From positions 35,609 to 99,608 of the forward strand of contig JAQBTR010000001.1 of NCBI GenBank assembly GCA_027624915.1: a DNA stretch of 64,000 bases, given 5' to 3'. Each line of letters starts with the position of its first letter. Position 1 is the stretch's first letter. The position numbers were made by a program, and so were the translations under genes. This stretch comes from a bacterium. GTDB taxonomy: Bacteria; Patescibacteriota; Minisyncoccia; Ryanbacterales; GWA2-47-10b. The notes beneath the pieces are model-generated. The model searched no databases, was not told the origin of the DNA, and worked only from the letters and a program-made list of their open reading frames with translations. Below, piece after piece: positions 3,712 to 52,351 of the stretch.

Positions 3712-4074
3712 ATGGTAAAAAAAGCGGCAGCAAAGCCTGCAAAAGCAGAGAAGCCTGAAAAGGCGGAAATCAAAAGCAAGTTACGTATTCGTATTCGCGC
3801 ATACGACAACAAGGTAATTGATGCTTCGGTTAGGCAAATCGTTGATACCGCTCGTAGATACGGAGGTGAAATAGTTGGTCCTGTGCCACTTCCAACAGAA
3901 ATCCGTAAGTACACAGTGAACCGCTCAACCTTCGTTCACAAAAACGCCCGAGAGCAGTTTGAGATGAGGGTACACAAGCGAATAATCGACATTCTTGATC
4001 CAACGGCCAAGATTGTAGACTCGCTCACCAATCTCAACTTGCCAGCCGGCGTAGACATTGAAGTTAAAATGTAA
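3712..4074 (+). CDS. rpsJ: 30S ribosomal protein S10 with a Lys/Ala-rich N-terminal extension.
   Basis: Core ...RIRIRAYD...VDTARRYG...PLPT... matches S10; starts 3 nt after the tuf stop. Confidence 0.93.
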
Positions 4075-4107: not shown

Positions 4108-4276
4108 GTTCGATTGACTACTAGTAGAGATTTGAGAGGGGGCTTTACATTTAAAGCCTAATTTGCTATATTTTAGAGCATGTTTTCGGAATGTTGAGGT
4201 AGTTAAAAGGCAACGCGTTGTCGGGGTCTAACCCGATTTTTTTTACCAAAATTAACTAGTGGGATAGCTCAAGAAA

Positions 4277-7085: not shown

Positions 7086-7430
7086 ATGTCTAAATCAACA
7101 GCAAAACTTAGCTTCTTACGAATCGCACCACGAAAGGTACGCTTGTTAGCTGACCTTGTTAAGGGAAGCGAAGTTAGTATTGCTATCAATCAGTTGACTA
7201 TAAATACTAAGCGTAGTGCTGAGCCACTTTTGAAGTTGATCAAGAGTGCCGTTGCAAATGCTCACGAAAACTCGAAGGTTCCGGAGGGTACACCTCTATA
7301 TATTCGAAGTCTCCGAGTGGACGAGGGTCGTACGCTCAAGCGTATGATGCCACGAGCAAGAGGTCGTGCGACAACTATTCGCAAGCGATCTAGTCATATT
7401 ACTCTCGAGTTAGATACAGAAAAGAAATAA
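7086..7430 (+). CDS. rplV: 50S ribosomal protein L22.
   Basis: ...RIAPRKVRLLADLVKG... and ...LRVDEGRTLKRMMPRARGRA... L22 motifs. Confidence 0.93.
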   Translation: MSKSTAKLSFLRIAPRKVRLLADLVKGSEVSIAINQLTINTKRSAEPLLKLIKSAVANAHENSKVPEGTPLYIRSLRVDEGRTLKRMMPRARGRATTIRKRSSHITLELDTEKK

Positions 7431-20536: not shown

Positions 20537-20587
20537 CCGGCTTCAAAATTTATCCACAAGAGGTCATGGGGGCAGGCTTGATACATA

Positions 20588-20615
20588 CACTACTACGATA
20601 TATCGTAGTAGTGTA
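20588..20615. promoter_or_regulatory. Perfect 28-bp palindrome acactactacgatatatcgtagtagtgt abutting the start codon of the TrpR-like gene; putative operator.
   Basis: The same 22-bp core, ctactacgatatatcgtagtag, recurs at 21047-21068. Confidence 0.55.
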
Positions 20616-21022
20616 TGCCGCATATTTCCCAAAAACAACTCAGCAAAAAGGTTCAAAAACGTATCTCTCAACAGTTTTTTGAGACCCTTTATGATCTAAA
20701 GTCTCGAGAGGATTTTATTGGTTTCTTAAATGAACTGTTAACTGAAACCGAGCAACTCATGCTCATGAAACGTATGGCTCTCATTGTGATGACCGAGCGA
20801 AATATTCCCTTCAAAGTTATTGAAAAGACTCTTCATATGAGTCCTGACACCATAGCGCGTTATTGGAAACGCTCAAAAACAAAAGAGCATAAAATAATTA
20901 TGAGACGTCTTAATAAAGAAAGCGTGTGGGGTGAACTGTGTGACGACATAGAGAGAGCCCTTCTTTTTGGAATGCCATCTAGGAGTATGAAGCAGCGAAG
21001 GCGACTTGGGCGACCTCTGTAA
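20615..21022 (+). CDS. TrpR/YerC-like helix-turn-helix DNA-binding protein.
   Basis: ...FIGFLNELLTETEQLMLMKRMALIVMTERNIPFKVIEKTLHMSPDTIARYWKRS... aligns by eye to TrpR ...[25 protein letters not shown]...IATITRGS. Confidence 0.55.
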   Translation: MPHISQKQLSKKVQKRISQQFFETLYDLKSREDFIGFLNELLTETEQLMLMKRMALIVMTERNIPFKVIEKTLHMSPDTIARYWKRSKTKEHKIIMRRLNKESVWGELCDDIERALLFGMPSRSMKQRRRLGRPL

Positions 21023-21046
21023 TTACTTTATTGTCGCATGAACCAT

Positions 21047-21068
21047 AACATCTACTACGATATATCGT
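21047..21068. promoter_or_regulatory. Second copy of the palindrome ctactacgatatatcgtagtag, ~50 nt upstream of the nuclease gene.
   Basis: Identical 22-bp perfect palindrome; could also act as an RNA hairpin. Confidence 0.55.
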
Positions 21069-21119
21069 AGTAGTCTTGTTATACGTTTACAGCGGCAGTG
21101 GCGGGTATATACTGATGGA

Positions 21120-21932
21120 ATGCAATATGAGGGACCGGATGATTTTAAGGAGCAGAACGGTTACGAGGTGAATGGCACATGGTATCCTCGCGTAACACGC
21201 ATTTTGGATGTTATACCAAAGCCCGCCTTAAAATATTTTTTCCGCGAGATGGGTTCGCAAGAGGCGGCAGACAAAGTTACCAAAAAATCTGCAGAAGAAG
21301 GAACTTTAGTACATGAAATGTGTCAGAGCCTGGCAGTTGGTGAGAATGTGCACGTACCTGAGTCTGTAGCACCATCCGTTTTTGCCTTCTATGACTTTTA
21401 CAAAAAGAATAATATCCACTTTCACCCAGAGTTTATAGAAAAGACTATTTGGTCAGTAGAGCATAAGTACGCAGGCACCATCGACGCACTCGCCGAAATA
21501 GACGGCAAATTTGGTGTGTTGGATATTAAGACCTCAACTGGCGTTTTTGATACGTATGGATATCAAACAGCCGCTTATATGCAGGCATTAGTCGAAGAAT
21601 CGGTGCACAAAGCATTAGCGTTACCTCGTCAGGTAGAAAAGCGTTGGATACTGCGAATTGATCAACATCGGTTATGTCGTTTGTGCAGCGCGCGCCTTCG
21701 TGAAAAGGGGGGACGCAAAAAAATCCGAAACGCATATTCACAAAAAGCAAAAGTATGTGACCACTCATGGACCGAACCCATGGGTGAGGTACAACTCCAC
21801 TGGCTTGATAGCAAAAACGTTGATAACAATTATTATGAATATCTGAGGGACGCGAATCAGTTTAATGACGCAAAAGCAAAGTGGACACATCAAAATCGTT
21901 ATTGGCTAGAACAAATAGGATATTTTTCATGA
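21120..21932 (+). CDS. RecB-family PD-(D/E)XK nuclease (Cas4/lambda-exonuclease-like), stand-alone.
   Basis: Motif I YPRVTRIL; II/III GTIDAL...VLDIKTS; QxxxY YGYQTAAYMQAL; Cys residues at MCQ, CRLC and VCDH may form a metal/FeS site. Confidence 0.6.
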   Translation: MQYEGPDDFKEQNGYEVNGTWYPRVTRILDVIPKPALKYFFREMGSQEAADKVTKKSAEEGTLVHEMCQSLAVGENVHVPESVAPSVFAFYDFYKKNNIHFHPEFIEKTIWSVEHKYAGTIDALAEIDGKFGVLDIKTSTGVFDTYGYQTAAYMQALVEESVHKALALPRQVEKRWILRIDQHRLCRLCSARLREKGGRKKIRNAYSQKAKVCDHSWTEPMGEVQLHWLDSKNVDNNYYEYLRDANQFNDAKAKWTHQNRYWLEQIGYFS

Positions 21933-22369
21933 GTAAAGAAAAACTGATCATTTACACAGATGGCGGGTCGAGAGGAAATCCTGGGCCTTCGGCTCTTGGT
22001 GTGTCCATCAAAGACTCAAGCGGCAAGATACTCAGAGAGTTTGGCGAGACGCTTGGCCGGCGCACCAACAACGAAGCAGAGTATGAAGCGATTGTGGCGG
22101 GACTCAAAAAAGCAAAAGCTATGCTTGGCAAGACAAAGGCCAAGAAGATGACGATTGATATGCGCATGGACTCTGAACTCGCATGCCGCCAACTCAACCA
22201 TATTTACAAGGTAGAAAATGAAAAAATTATTCCACTCTTCTTGCAGATTTGGAACTTGATGCTTGATTTTGGTGAAGTTACATTTACCCACGTGTTGCGA
22301 GACAAAAACAAAGACGCAGATCGTATGGTAAATGAGGCACTTGATGGTGAGCAAGGGACGCTGCTCTAG
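21929..22369 (+). CDS. rnhA: Ribonuclease HI. Start set to the ATG at 21929, which overlaps the nuclease stop (ATGA).
   Basis: IYTDGGSRGNPGPSALG, TNNEAEYEA, DSELACRQL and ...RDKNKDADRMVNEAL RNase H catalytic motifs. Confidence 0.85.
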   Translation: MSKEKLIIYTDGGSRGNPGPSALGVSIKDSSGKILREFGETLGRRTNNEAEYEAIVAGLKKAKAMLGKTKAKKMTIDMRMDSELACRQLNHIYKVENEKIIPLFLQIWNLMLDFGEVTFTHVLRDKNKDADRMVNEALDGEQGTLL

Positions 22370-22380
22370 AGCGCATTTTA

Positions 22381-22410
22381 AAAAACACCCCGCCTTGGCG
22401 GGGTGTTTTT
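22381..22410. terminator. Bidirectional terminator caccccgcc-tt-ggcggggtg flanked by an A-run and a T-run, between rnhA (+) and the 64-aa ORF (-).
   Basis: GC-rich stem followed by tttttt; A-run upstream serves the opposite strand. Confidence 0.65.
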
Positions 22411-22604
22411 TATTTGATATGTTCTTTGATGAGGGATGAGAGTTCGTTTATGTGATCCTCTTTGTCTTTGGCGAGTTTTTCCCAAATGCCCTTGCACCCA
22501 GAACAGTCCCCAGCGTCTTTTGTATATTCATTTTTAATTCTCCAGAGACTTTTGTGCTCCTCAGTCATTTGAAGCATGAGGTTATACGCATGATTGTCAA
22601 ACAT
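22410..22604 (-). CDS. Small hypothetical protein of 64 aa.
   Basis: ORF with a terminator at its 3' end; contains a CSGCKG motif. No clear RBS. Confidence 0.4.
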   Translation of the reverse strand: MFDNHAYNLMLQMTEEHKSLWRIKNEYTKDAGDCSGCKGIWEKLAKDKEDHINELSSLIKEHIK

Positions 22605-22655
22605 GATATTTATTGTTAGGAATATTGATAATACAAGTAGTATACCACTTTAAAT

Positions 22656-23648
22656 ATGCGGGCACATTATGTTATTCTCGCGCTCATTGCGGGGATTTCA
22701 TTTCCAGTTTCAATAGATATTAGAATTCCGTCGGTAATTGCCGGGGTTCTTATCGCACTTTCTTTTTGGCGACCCGAGCTACGACTATGGGCAGGGGTCG
22801 CTACAGCCTTTGTTTTAGGGGTATTACGCGCTTCATTCGGCCCGTGGGAGCTTTGGTTTGTTGGTGATATACGTATATTGCTGGAGGCTATGCGTGACAT
22901 ATTTGCCGCTCGAATTTCGCTTATATTGCCAGAACCCCATGCTTCATATTTAAATGGTCTTTTGTTAGGGCTTCGTGGTGATATTCCTATTGCAATACGC
23001 GACGCATTTCGTGATACAGGAACAAGCCACCTCATCGCGCTTTCTGGTTATAACGTAACCATTATTACTTCATACTTAGGAAAGATATTTTCTGGGTTTT
23101 GGGTGCCAGTCGTTGGAGTTGTTTTGTTTGTGTTGGGTACTGGTGCTCAAAGCTCTTTAGTGCGAGCAGCACTCATGGGTATATTGGTTCTGGGTGCTCA
23201 AAAGTTAGGGAAAAAATATACACCAACACGTGCGCTTCTTTTGGCAGCAACCCTCATGATTTTGTTTGAGCCTACAATTCTTTTTGAAGATGTTGGATTT
23301 CAGTTGTCGGTTGCCGCAACTGCGGGACTTATATATCTGACACCGATGATTGAACCGTATTTTAAATGGCTTACTAATAAGTGGTCAGTTCGCGAATCAC
23401 TTGTTGTGACATTGGCGGCGCAAGCAGCTACCTTTCCAATTATCTTTTATTATTTTGGTTCGCCATCACTATGGTCGCCATTCGTAAATGTGTTAGTTAT
23501 CGTAACGATACCGGCTGTGATGTTTTTTGGTTTTGTAGCTGGCGTTGCTGCATTTGTGCACACAACAATCGGTATTATTGCGGTGAGTCCAGCCTATGCG
23601 CTACTTTTATACCAGCTTTTTATTATTGAGTTTTTCGCGAAGCTGTAG
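22656..23648 (+). CDS. comEC: ComEC/Rec2 competence (DNA-channel) domain protein, encoded on its own without OB or MBL domains.
   Basis: ...EPHASYLNGLLLGLRGDIPIAIRDAFRDTGTSHLIALSGYNVTII... matches the Competence-domain signature; ~8 TM segments. Confidence 0.75.
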   Translation: MRAHYVILALIAGISFPVSIDIRIPSVIAGVLIALSFWRPELRLWAGVATAFVLGVLRASFGPWELWFVGDIRILLEAMRDIFAARISLILPEPHASYLNGLLLGLRGDIPIAIRDAFRDTGTSHLIALSGYNVTIITSYLGKIFSGFWVPVVGVVLFVLGTGAQSSLVRAALMGILVLGAQKLGKKYTPTRALLLAATLMILFEPTILFEDVGFQLSVAATAGLIYLTPMIEPYFKWLTNKWSVRESLVVTLAAQAATFPIIFYYFGSPSLWSPFVNVLVIVTIPAVMFFGFVAGVAAFVHTTIGIIAVSPAYALLLYQLFIIEFFAKL

Positions 23649-35666: not shown

Positions 35667-35678
35667 AGAATTAAAAAA

Positions 35679-35708
35679 ACCCCTGAGCTTTGCCCAAGGG
35701 GTTTTTTT
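35679..35708 (+). terminator. Terminator acccct...aggggt followed by tttttt.
   Basis: Stem plus T7 immediately after the stop codon. Confidence 0.55.
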
Positions 35709-36171
35709 AAAAAAGAAAATACACCAATGATACGGTGCATCGCTTTTAAAAATAGAAAAAATTAAGACCCGCACGCTGGCAGGTCTTTACGAGAGAGATA
35801 AATTGTCCAAGGTTCAGGAGAGGAGAGTGACGAAAGAGAAAGAGAGTTTAATGTGATGCAGGAGCATCGGGTCTAAGGTTGAGAGCCAACGGGCTCTCCT
35901 CTTCTTGTGTCACTTTGCCTCTGTCGAAGTTCTGATACTAGTATAAGATGTGGCTCATGAAGTCTCAATAGATTTTAAAAAAATCCCTGTGGAAAACATT
36001 CAAAATAAAATAAAAAGTATACAATTAGGTATTTTTGTTCATTATAAATCTTGCACTAATACCAAATATGTGTTAGGGTGCAGGTAAGCGTGTCTCGTTT
36101 GAACCGCATGGTTAACCTCTTCGGGAGAGATTATAAAGAAGTTTCAGCCGTGCTCGAGCGCCACATTATCT

Positions 36172-36672
36172 ATGGAAAACAAAAAAGTAAAAGTAGAACG
36201 GTCTGCTGGTGCCGTTGTGTTTCGTAAACAAGGAAGAAGAATTCTTTACCTGCTTTTGCAACACATGCGTGGTCACTGGGCATTTCCAAAGGGTCACATA
36301 GAAGAGGGTGAAAAACCAGTTGAAGCGGCCCGACGTGAAATAAAAGAAGAAACTGGAATTGGTCGCATTCGTTTTTTGCAGGGATATAAAGAAAATATTC
36401 GTTTTCGTTTTCAGTGGCCACCGAAATCACTTGACGCAGAGTCACGTTTGAAGTTTGTTGTGTTTTACCTCGGCCAGGTTTTTACTCGTGACGTAGTTAT
36501 CTCCGAAGAGCATAAAGATTTTCAGTGGGTTCCCTATGAAAAGGCAATGAAAATATTAAAGCATAAAAATGTTCGAGAGCTGCTCACAAAAGCTCACGAA
36601 TTAGTTACTAAAAAACCAGCTCCAGAAATAGTAAGAAAACCACCGATACAACACAAGAAAGAATCAAAATAA
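36172..36672 (+). CDS. NUDIX hydrolase.
   Basis: Nudix box GHIEEGEKPVEAARREIKEETGI. Confidence 0.85.
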   Translation: MENKKVKVERSAGAVVFRKQGRRILYLLLQHMRGHWAFPKGHIEEGEKPVEAARREIKEETGIGRIRFLQGYKENIRFRFQWPPKSLDAESRLKFVVFYLGQVFTRDVVISEEHKDFQWVPYEKAMKILKHKNVRELLTKAHELVTKKPAPEIVRKPPIQHKKESK

Positions 36673-36705
36673 AAAATCCTCCAGAGTTGGAGGATTTTTT
36701 ATTTT
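36670..36705. terminator. Bidirectional terminator atcctcca-gagt-tggaggat with flanking A- and T-runs, between the NUDIX gene (+) and rplT (-).
   Basis: Perfect 8-bp stem; aaaaaa upstream and tttttt downstream. Confidence 0.7.
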
Positions 36706-37064
36706 GCCTCAACAGGTTCTTTGGTCACCTCTTCTACAATCGAATTGAAAATGTTTGGATGTTTTTGGGCAAGCTGTGAGAGAATCTTTCGGTCTAGTTT
36801 AATGTTCGCTTTTGTTAGCTGGTCTATGAGCTTGCTGTATGTGATACCTTGTGCGCGTGCTCCTGCATTAATTTTTATAGTCCAGAGACGTCGCATTGTT
36901 CGTTTCTTTTTTCGTCGGTCATTGAACGAATGTGTGTATGCGTGAAGAAGAGCTTCGCGTGCTGCGCGCTCTTTAGAACTTCGATCCCATCTAAACCCTT
37001 TTGTTTGTTTAAGGATTGAGCGACGTCGTTTTATTGAAGTTGTTCCTCGTTTAACTCGTGTCAT
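36699..37064 (-). CDS. rplT: 50S ribosomal protein L20.
   Basis: MTRVKRGTTSIKRRRSILKQTKGFRWDRSSKERAAREALLHAYTHSF... near-canonical L20. Confidence 0.95.
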   Translation of the reverse strand: MTRVKRGTTSIKRRRSILKQTKGFRWDRSSKERAAREALLHAYTHSFNDRRKKKRTMRRLWTIKINAGARAQGITYSKLIDQLTKANIKLDRKILSQLAQKHPNIFNSIVEEVTKEPVEAK

Positions 37065-45690: not shown

Positions 45691-45728
45691 AAAAATCCCC
45701 TCCGACGTTACGTCGGAGGGGATTTTTG
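45691..45728 (+). terminator. Terminator atcccctccgacg-tta-cgtcggaggggat followed by ttttg.
   Basis: Perfect 13-bp stem. Confidence 0.7.
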
Positions 45729-51119: not shown

Positions 51120-51152
51120 AAAAAACTCTAGAGTTAACTCTAGAGTTTTTTT
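51120..51152. terminator. Bidirectional terminator aaaaaa-ctctagag-ttaa-ctctagag-ttttttt.
   Basis: Perfect stem flanked by an A6 and a T7 run. Confidence 0.7.
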
Positions 51153-52008: not shown

Positions 52009-52351
52009 TGGTGGAGACGGGCGGAATCGAACCGCCGTCCGAAGAGTAATATAGAAAGAATTTGTTACAAGCTTGTCTAGTTTTTAAGGCTAGAGGTTTG
52101 CTCGATGGGGTGTCGCGATACCGTATCGAGCAGTAGTATCGCCAAGCTCGAATTTATAACACCGGTTACCAGACAGTCGAGCGCCAACTGGGCCGATGGC
52201 CTATGCTATTTAAGCGTAGGCGGGTACGAGCTCTCGCTCGCCAAATAAGTTTGCACTTATCAAGTACACGGACAGTTTTGAAAGAGTTAGCCGTGTCGGC
52301 TCTTGCTTGATCCCTAATATAAAAGCTTCCCCGTCGAAGCCTAGCGTCCCC
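52009..52351 (-). ncRNA. ssrA: tmRNA (transfer-messenger RNA, SsrA), ~343 nt with an encoded CCA end. Predicted tag reading frame resumes at GCA-AAC and reads ANLFGERELVPAYA-stop (UAA at 52210-52212).
   Basis: 5' end GGGGACGCUAGGCUUCGACGGGG (compare E. coli GGGGCUGAUUCUGGAUUCGACGGG). 3' end GGCGGUUCGAUUCCGCCCGUCUCCACCA (T-arm + acceptor + CCA). A 7-bp acceptor stem can form with one G-U pair. Adjacent to smpB. Confidence 0.85.

Follow-up and report, generated by a model that had tools for sequence, protein, structure and literature searches.

A TrpR-family gene bracketed by twin palindromes in Patescibacteria: a probable leaderless, autoregulated cassette

The 64,000-nt stretch of a contig from an ultra-small bacterium (Ryanbacterales, Patescibacteriota) analysed here (JAQBTR010000001.1; hereafter the window) carries a small gene for a TrpR-family helix-turn-helix protein that lies between two copies of one palindrome. 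Judged from sequence, gene and palindromes together (∼20578-21082) are probably, though with real reservations, a leaderless cassette that represses its own transcription and has a cognate operator at either end. Of the homologous genes examined, about three quarters show this palindrome-gene-palindrome arrangement, for which the literature searched gave no description. The anatomy of the cassette is conserved, its palindromes co-vary with the protein that they enclose, and it is independent of the genes downstream. The positions of the features are collected in Table 1.

A 22-bp perfect palindrome, CTACTACGATATATCGTAGTAG, is present exactly twice in the window, with no further site when up to three mismatches were allowed and no occurrence in 100 dinucleotide-preserving shuffles. 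In copy 1 this core (20590-20611) is the centre of a longer perfect palindrome, the final three bases of which are the ATG of the regulator's open reading frame (ORF), and a −10-like hexamer also lies within it. Copy 2 starts 29 nt past the stop codon of the regulator and ends 46 nt ahead of the next ATG at 21120, and its outer stem is imperfect, with ATAACA (21045-21050) pairing with TGTTAT (21077-21082). The first-pass annotation had described one palindrome present twice around the regulator, which the window search bears out. It had rightly placed copy 1 at the start codon, with an extent that was too short (28 bp, 20588-20615), and the length of 22 bp and distance of ∼50 nt to the next gene that it gave for copy 2 hold, in contrast to the position (21047-21068). 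It had also raised the possibility of a widespread genomic repeat; within the 64 kb no site lies outside the cassette, yet in metagenomes the core is not confined to it. A separate, near-perfect palindrome of 46 bp at 2043-2088 (AGACCAAAACAAAAATACTGCAT/ATGCGGTATTTTTGTTTTGGTCT, 96% complementary) is the longest in the window and is unrelated in sequence to CTACTACGATATATCGTAGTAG.

Table 1. Positions of the cassette and its neighbouring features in the window.
Feature	Position	Strand	Remarks
−35-like hexamer TTGATA	20578-20583	+	Abuts left edge of copy 1; consensus scan
Palindrome copy 1	20584-20617	none	34-bp perfect palindrome, CATACACTACTACGATA/TATCGTAGTAGTGTATG, around the 22-bp core; proposed autoregulatory operator
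−10-like hexamer TATCGT	20601-20606	+	In right arm of copy 1, 8 nt before ATG
TrpR/YerC-fold helix-turn-helix protein	20615-21022	+	135 aa; recognition helix region MSPDTIARYW
Palindrome copy 2	21052-21073	none	Same 22-bp core; proposed second operator (as roadblock, insulator or loop anchor), 3′ bracket of cassette
Nuclease promoter-like site	21086-21113	+	TTTACA-16-TATACT, 10/12, then 6 nt, ATG
PD-(D/E)XK nuclease, MGME1-like	21120-21932	+	270 aa; neighbour of the cassette, not part of it
RNase HI	21929-22369	+	Start overlaps nuclease stop (ATGA); RVT_3 62.1, RNase_H 38.8 bits
Intrinsic terminator, bidirectional	22379-22412	none	A-tract, G+C stem, T-tract; ends nuclease-RNase HI unit

The encoded protein scores marginally above the cut-off of the Pfam family Trp_repressor (PF01371; 27.4 bits against 27) and below that of the YerC/YecD equivalog TIGR02531 (23.3 bits against 42.2), and is labelled “Trp family transcriptional regulator” by NCBI. 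A three-member profile matched only three entries in the PDB, the structural-genomics TrpR-like proteins 3kor, 3frw and 3g1c (E 2e-6 to 1e-4). The AlphaFold2 model is all-helical, with eight helices and a predicted local distance difference test (pLDDT) score of 84.8, and the top 30 PDB matches found by Foldseek are all TrpR or YerC-like chains at E values of only 0.04-1, the best being 3kor, 3frw, 3g1c and E. coli TrpR with target-normalised TM-scores of 0.6-0.77. The TrpR-like identity first assigned to the gene is thus borne out by Pfam score, PDB profile matches and predicted fold. The protein has the family signature LLTxTE..ML.KR and a recognition helix SxxT..R, and the invariant residues of the family are those of the TrpR signature. 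The regulator is ∼30-40 residues longer than TrpR or HisR, with extra C-terminal helices and a conserved GMPPxGKGRW motif. An exhaustive profile search with a limit of E ≤ 1e-3 returned 1,822 cluster representatives, of which 739 also pass a limit of E ≤ 1e-10; among the 150 matches listed, nearly all are 130-145 aa long and align end to end. The entry 3g1c is of the HisR/YerC type, a group whose members bind palindromes of 20 bp, frequently ahead of the gene that encodes them (PMC9413887). No his genes lie near the regulator in the window or in the homologous loci, and full-text searches of the literature found no description of the family in Patescibacteria. The palindrome is very probably the cognate operator of the regulator. 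If the protein resembles TrpR and HisR in its mode of action, it presumably works as a dimer and may depend on a small-molecule corepressor.

When one genome per species was scanned with a 19-sequence alignment, 66 loci were obtained, mostly from records with Patescibacteria in their titles; these and the other loci and contigs compared here are cited by L numbers. Taking a gene as bracketed when at least 12 identical nt are common to the 130 nt before its start and the 160 nt after its stop, 54 of the 70 homologous genes are bracketed by a lineage-specific palindrome, compared to 4 of 322 control ORFs from the same loci. The count of 54 is a lower bound, because some degenerate copies, those of L012 among them, escaped the palindrome finder. 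Most loci have exactly two copies in ∼12 kb. In most loci a gap of 0-30 nt separates the upstream copy from the ATG. The downstream copy begins a median of ∼10 nt past the stop codon of the regulator, and the spacing between the two is 412-607 bp across loci and 462 bp in the window. The close association of site and gene is also seen for CGATATATCG, where 37 of 40 occurrences in 637 kb of homologous loci lie beside a TrpR-like gene.

The sequence of the palindrome changes with the protein. At L001, where the protein is 79% identical to that of the window, ACTACGAT(GT/GC)ATCGTAGT is found twice upstream, with one copy abutting the ATG, and once downstream. At L002 (33% identical), TAGTAGCGATATATCGCTACTA abuts the ATG and recurs 6 nt past the stop, and its outer arms are symmetrically exchanged relative to those of the window. 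Further lineage-specific palindromes are NNNNCGATATATCGNNNN, AATGATTTAAATCATT, TGTATCATA-N8-TATGATACA, GATGTTTTAAAACATC, AATGAATCGATTCATT and GATGATACGTATCATC. Two paralogs within one Giovannonibacteria genome each have their own variant, GTGATACGATATATCGTATC at L004 and GCTTCGATATATCGAAGC at L005. Six palindrome classes follow distinct recognition-helix sequences, such as SPSTVAR, SAPTIAS, TRITVSR and SVSTVN, a match that is confounded by phylogeny.

Several loci depart from the two-copy arrangement. A 70-nt segment with two palindromes is repeated on either side of the gene in L013 (5907-5976 and 6455-6524), L056 has copies at 4204, 4682, 4774 and 4856, three of them downstream of the gene, and L053 has a third copy (7360-7385) past its convergent neighbour. 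L197 contains four sites in 1.1 kb (323-346, 606-630, 853-876 and 1407-1430), and in L197/L198 the neighbour of the TrpR-like gene, which encodes 87 aa without a Pfam match, likewise lies between two sites. Fourteen loci come from records titled Gammaproteobacteria/Lysobacterales (L011, L016, L019, L023, L026, L033, L039, L042, L046, L049, L054, L058, L063 and L068). The TrpR-like proteins of L046/L049 are 62-68% identical to those of the Levyibacteriota loci L025/L028 and share their palindrome class, while those of L026/L033 are 62-63% identical to that of L031 (identities across these pairs range up to 69%), and by this resemblance the titles may be wrong.

The position of copy 1 suggests how the regulator could control its own gene. 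A consensus scan of the window found a promoter-like arrangement of TTGATA-17-TATCGT (9/12) followed by 8 nt and the ATG, and by this geometry copy 1 fills the spacer, the −10 element and the start site. In homologous loci, TTGACA-type −35 hexamers often abut the left edge of the palindrome, and 74% of TrpR-like genes, compared to 41% of others, have a −10-like hexamer with its end at 4-12 nt (mostly 6-8) from the ATG. Shine-Dalgarno-like motifs precede 4% of the TrpR-like genes, compared to 12% of the other long ORFs in these loci. The mRNA of the regulator is therefore predicted to be leaderless or near-leaderless. The autoregulatory role proposed for copy 1 in the first-pass annotation fits its overlap with the gene's own promoter and start, as well as the comparative evidence from 70 genes. 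Leaderless mRNAs may be common in these genomes, as the −10 of the nuclease also lies exactly 6 nt before its ATG and Shine-Dalgarno-like motifs are rare (12%).

From these arrangements we infer a mechanism in which the TrpR-family protein would recognise the palindrome that brackets its own gene. Bound to copy 1, it would occlude a sigma-70-type promoter and so stop its own transcription, since copy 1 spans the promoter spacer, the −10 element and the start site. Copy 2 would be a second operator of the same cassette, most likely a 3′ boundary that blocks both read-out and read-in transcription, and/or a partner that cooperates with copy 1 through looping over 462 bp. Should copy 2 also influence the nuclease promoter, which lies 12 bp further on, that role would be a subordinate one. 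Leaderless transcripts together with promoter occlusion would amount to negative autoregulation of the regulator.

Some observations, in addition to the phylogenetic confounding noted above, weigh against a simple promoter operator with a partner site. The spacing between copies (412-607 bp) shows no helical phasing (Rayleigh p > 0.1 at periods of 10-11.5 bp), which had been looked for as a sign of looping. Dyad symmetry often runs past the shared core in copy-specific sequence: among 31 copies on each side, 8 upstream and 10 downstream ones extend by 4 bp or more, and both copies extend by at least 3 bp at 6 of 31 loci. In the window the extensions are CATACA/TGTATG and ATAACA/TGTTAT, and in L053 they are 8 and 10 bp long and unrelated in sequence. 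One protein reading both sites does not explain these extensions, which could reflect hairpin or cruciform potential, mutational bias, or correction of near-palindromes by template switching. Folded as RNA, copy 1 reaches −26.7 kcal/mol (z −5.2) and copy 2 reaches −21.8, comparable to the terminator at 22379-22412. Finally, among the metagenome matches listed, copies of the 18-mer core of the palindrome away from TrpR-like genes lie mostly at gene 3′ ends and within ORFs, which, as a sequence distribution, is not the pattern of a promoter regulon.

The dispersed copies raise the possibility that the protein is a site-specific chromosomal DNA-binding factor with few sites per genome, acting in roadblock or termination or as a parS/matS/Ter-type system, and is not mainly a promoter repressor. 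We regard this as a tentative alternative with a small chance of being right. The metagenome scan for the 18-mer ACTACGATATATCGTAGT gave at least 138 sites on at least 120 contigs; among the matches listed, 33 sites adjoin a TrpR-like gene and 105 do not. Of the latter, 82 have at least 300 bp on either side, and crude ORF calls divide these into 32 intergenic sites and 50 within ORFs. When 28 of the listed intergenic sites were classified by hand, 10 fell between convergent genes, ∼17 between tandem genes and only one in a divergent promoter region. The 105 listed sites away from TrpR-like genes share the consensus AAAn-core-nTTT, and within the family the downstream bracket is present even where the neighbouring genes are convergent.

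Many of the 18-mers among the matches listed lie in frame within ORFs and read as TTIYRS or LRYIVV. In MiaA the 18-mer occurs at the same protein position in two reading frames, without a gap or a change of length in alignment to PDB 2qgn, and an insertion of the palindrome into MiaA was rejected on this basis. Since the same MiaA position is read in two frames, the 18-mer would be maintained at the level of nucleotides and not of protein. It is also found in leucyl-tRNA synthetase (LeuRS, two positions), TrmD and glycosyltransferases (sites in housekeeping genes, MiaA included, at L119:4428, L166:458, L085:3356, L108:311, L150:586, L151:7528 and L093:3144). Nineteen reverse transcriptases of the diversity-generating retroelement (DGR) type carry it as LRYIVV at one position shortly after YADD (L075:1612, L081:2512, L088:1859, L171:2752, L160:2089, L173:12496, L170:308 and L156:11176, with reverse-strand cases in L113, L123, L096, L091, L184 and L130), and Avd-like genes lie near these DGR-type enzymes. 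Homologous reverse transcriptases without the 18-mer have IPQIRDF or IPKINSF at that position, and at L086:2974 the 18-mer directly follows YADDF in the other frame (TTIYRS). By their positions, the sites within ORFs sit where a promoter operator would make no sense, and part of them may be chance matches in a very large database.

Other points speak against a chromosomal site system. The window has no third site in 64 kb and no partner ATPase or other machinery nearby, and no GC-skew switch was found at the locus; the skew stays positive across the window, and a link to a replication origin or terminus was rejected. Site-binding proteins encoded beside their sites are known: TerB adjoins tus, rtp has its Ter sites as neighbours, and in pB171 the sites parC1 and parC2 enclose parAB. 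It is conceivable, though we would give it little weight, that Patescibacteria have an undescribed site-specific system that brackets its own gene, marks 3′ ends and is kept in miaA, leuS, trmD and DGR reverse transcriptase genes, with gene and sites travelling together and a role as a boundary or roadblock or in chromosome structure. Among the dispersed sites, those at L144:6887 and L144:9728 lie within a longer repeated segment, the flanks being alike over at least 30-45 nt to either side, and L118:7069 and L135:695 share the flank GCTACATATAACTGTCTTTGAAAGG beside the 18-mer.

A second alternative ties the regulator to the genes that follow it. The first-pass annotation proposed a self-contained, dedicated module for DNA processing or defence, in which one repressor acts on two operators, one autoregulatory and the other on the nuclease-RNase HI operon. 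The bracketing of the gene by two very probably cognate sites stands, but a dedicated part for the nuclease and RNase HI is not specifically supported, and we consider the combined proposal improbable. A gap of 12 bp separates copy 2 from the nuclease −35, so that copy 2 could modulate that promoter; it is centred near −57 and does not overlap the promoter. The association with DNA-processing genes is seen in some loci: in L036 and L052 the cassette is followed directly by RNase HI (and then, in L036, by a gene that is ComEC-like by eye), RecJ lies upstream of the cassette in L002, L036 and L052, and three lineages, represented by the window, L001 and L197/L198, have the cassette within a PGK...nuclease-RNase HI-ComEC neighbourhood. 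In L018, L025, L028, L015 and L039, the downstream copy abuts the start of the next gene with the same geometry as the upstream copy. Across the family, however, the downstream copy keeps its place at the stop codon of the regulator, also where the next gene is convergent; such genes were identified by eye as gyrA (L054/L062), lysS (L013), htpX (L048) and yidC (L044). The neighbours are unrelated housekeeping genes, with 137 of 192 neighbour proteins being singletons, and a conserved downstream target gene was rejected on this ground.

Conversely, the nuclease does without the cassette. In L189, L191, L193 and L195 the order GalT-TIM-PGK-(hypothetical)-nuclease-(x)-RNase HI-ComEC-MBL (metallo-beta-lactamase) is preserved with neither regulator nor palindrome beside the nuclease (L196, the sequence of which is incomplete upstream, was not counted among these relatives). 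The nuclease −10, 6-nt gap and ATG (21108-21122 in the window) are nonetheless kept in L189, L191 and L193 (∼3985-4003 in each), and the gene immediately before the nuclease in L189 and L191 encodes the ortholog of the window's 184-aa upstream protein. In L197/L198 the cassette is on the opposite strand, 3.7 kb from the nuclease. PADLOC returned nothing for the regulator or RNase HI and weak Cas4 matches only for the nuclease, which is MGME1-like, and a defence role is unlikely. Because its neighbours are unrelated, the conserved block exists without it and it is inverted in L197/L198, the cassette is best seen as an independent unit within that block. The claim that copy 2 is an operator of the nuclease-RNase HI operon finds no specific support given its family-wide tie to the regulator's stop codon, and on the sequences compared it is weakly supported.

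Mobility offers a third explanation, in which the palindrome-gene-palindrome unit is a selfish cassette resembling those of the transposase family RAYT and its repetitive extragenic palindromic (REP) sequences, moving as a unit while its palindromes also spread elsewhere. The genomic context of the cassette varies widely, the cassette is present or absent in the conserved block and inverted in L197, extra palindrome copies cluster near the TrpR-like gene, and the 18-mer is dispersed at 3′ ends and within genes among the metagenome matches listed. For the pairs L009/L012, L101/L163 and L055/L064, nucleotide homology ends at the cassette despite proteins that are 75-85% identical. Against active mobility, the invariant residues are those of the TrpR signature and include no transposase, recombinase or HUH motif, and genomes hold one or two diverged copies where many identical ones would be expected. 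No direct repeat is obvious by visual check just outside the copies in the window, no palindromic target site was found in cassette-less relatives, and the gap-free alignment of MiaA shows that its embedded sites are not insertions. Cassettes of L046/L049, L059/L066, L015/L039, L054/L062 and window/L001 occupy orthologous positions and keep orthologous differences between upstream and downstream copies. The features of an insertion sequence, a miniature inverted-repeat transposable element or a REP-RAYT system (transposase or HUH enzyme, target duplication, many near-identical copies) were thus not seen. Nor were relatives of the regulator found on viral contigs, and a phage origin of the cassette was rejected for this reason. 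Relocation of the cassette over evolutionary time is likely from these comparisons; that it is a mobile or selfish element we consider unlikely.

The palindromes might also be RNA hairpins only, serving as terminators or mRNA stabilisers for the upstream gene and the regulator, with the protein acting elsewhere or not on them. Apart from the folding energies and symmetry extensions given above, this is favoured by the position of both copies downstream of a co-directional gene, by a weak terminator-like flag for copy 2 (5 T in an 8-base window) and, among the metagenome matches listed, by the intergenic 18-mers that lie mostly at 3′ ends, often with A/T tracts. A hairpin needs no set sequence, however, yet the cores are identical within a locus and differ between loci, paralogs keep separate variants, and the class of site follows the recognition helix. 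Dyad symmetry usually continues through the very centre, where a loop would be. The bias of G:U over A:C mismatches expected of RNA stems was not found at the flanking copies (14 G:U against 13 A:C). No U-tract was found either: after downstream copies T makes up 0.26 of the bases, the same as in the background, with at least 5 T in 8 in 4 of 57, and copy 1 has no T-run. The G+C-rich stem-loop and U-tract of an intrinsic terminator are thus lacking, and the ordinary terminators of the window, with their A-tract, G+C stem and T-tract, look quite unlike copies 1 and 2. Longer arms where the upstream gene reads in, taken as a sign of a terminator role, were looked for and rejected, as arm lengths are alike for co-directional and divergent upstream genes (12.6 and 11.4 bp, p = 0.13). 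Furthermore, because the −10 element sits in the right arm of copy 1, the regulator's own mRNA would not contain that copy. Taken together, the sequences favour a site in double-stranded DNA that the encoded protein recognises, and make hairpins as the sole function very improbable.

The nuclease that follows the cassette carries the motifs GTIDAL, VLDIKTS and QTAAY (QxxxY). It scores just below the PDDEXK_1 cut-off (21.6 bits against 22) and far below that of Cas4 TIGR00372 (23.1 against 65), and it contains a CxxC...CxH insert that is invariant in its family. This family (∼264 aa) gave 1,314 matches, the best being 50-58% identical, and all named matches are from Patescibacteria. The structural model (pLDDT 89.6) has human MGME1 as its best fold match (E 8e-8), followed by RecE, with Cas4 weak. 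By motif and model, the nuclease appears to belong to the PD-(D/E)XK (Cas4/RecB) superfamily but is probably not a Cas4. No cas genes adjoin it, and the repeat searches, none of which was a scan aimed at CRISPR, listed no array. RNase HI scores above the Pfam cut-offs and also matches the NCBIfam RNase HI models, and ComEC starts at 22656. The nuclease motifs, the overlap with rnhA and the adjacent ComEC had been read correctly from the sequence at the outset, and sequence and profiles agree with them. Among the roles then suggested for the nuclease, a Cas4-like one gives way to the closer MGME1, and defence is disfavoured by conservation and fixed synteny; DNA processing is the one suggested by the present comparison.

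The block of nuclease, RNase HI, ComEC and MBL-fold protein (21120-23648 in the window) recurs in L189, L191, L193, L195 and L197. Because the nuclease is MGME1-like and conserved, it is probably not a defence gene, and because it is coupled in fixed order to RNase HI and ComEC, a housekeeping role is plausible; the synteny suggests processing of primers, flaps or imported DNA rather than defence. Two small membrane proteins upstream of the cassette had been called paralogous, for which there is one weak BLASTP match of 45 residues in the membrane segment (24% identity, E 0.005). Between RNase HI and ComEC lies a 64-aa ORF on the minus strand with a CSGC motif (22410-22604), which shares the bidirectional terminator, and L197 and L199 have a 63-aa minus-strand gene at a similar position. 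Further canonical bidirectional intrinsic terminators lie at 35671-35710, 36665-36706, 45691-45727 and 51120-51151. The only known RNA family found in the window is a transfer-messenger RNA gene (52009-52351, minus strand) with the tag peptide ANLFGERELVPAYA.

Patescibacteria, or the Candidate Phyla Radiation (CPR), make up a large share of bacterial diversity and have genomes of ∼1 Mb. To our knowledge, almost nothing is known about their gene regulation, and few regulators have been recognised. The cassette described here would be a widespread and easily recognised regulator family in the CPR. Since the predicted cognate site can be read from the flanks of each gene, the family would provide a natural table of proteins and operators for the specificity of the TrpR fold, and it yields testable predictions of promoters and leaderless starts in the CPR. 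Should the same protein also bind the dispersed and intragenic sites, the system would be a transcription boundary, or a set of chromosomal sites, of a new kind.

Several known systems resemble parts of this locus. MGME1, one of the PD-(D/E)XK single-strand DNA exonucleases, works jointly with RNase H1 on primers and flaps in mitochondria. It is the best structural match of the window nuclease, with the same D...D/ExK and QxxxY motifs, and the nuclease is genetically coupled to RNase HI; unlike MGME1, it is bacterial, only 15-17% identical, carries the extra conserved CxxC...CxH insert and is known here from sequence and model. RAYT genes are flanked by cognate REP palindromes (REPINs), further copies of which lie mainly at gene 3′ ends. 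The cassette likewise has a small gene between cognate palindromic repeats, with other copies mainly at 3′ ends, but it encodes an all-helical TrpR fold and no HUH/Y1 nuclease, and its copies are few per genome, with two in the window.

Paired operators are also known, such as lac O1 and O2, ∼400 bp apart, and gal OE and OI, where the auxiliary operator lies downstream of the promoter, while in pB171 par2 the sites parC1 and parC2 flank parAB. As in these systems, two cognate sites (here 412-607 bp apart) enclose the regulated gene and one would overlap its promoter. In contrast to them, the cores here are identical or nearly so, the second site lies just past the stop of one small gene, and the spacing has no helical phasing. 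The closest comparison is with E. coli TrpR and with HisR (PF01371), which share the fold, the LTPxE...R signature helix and the SxxT..R recognition helix with the regulator, and which act at a ∼20-bp palindromic operator over a promoter, often that of their own gene (PMC9413887). The proposed operators match neither the TrpR motif TGTACTnGTnnACnAGTACA nor the HisR motif cacTTTA-n6-TAAAgtg, the neighbourhood lacks genes for amino-acid biosynthesis, and the regulator gene looks leaderless. Unlike TrpR and HisR, a second, identical site right after the stop codon is the rule in this family, most loci of which carry Patescibacteria titles.

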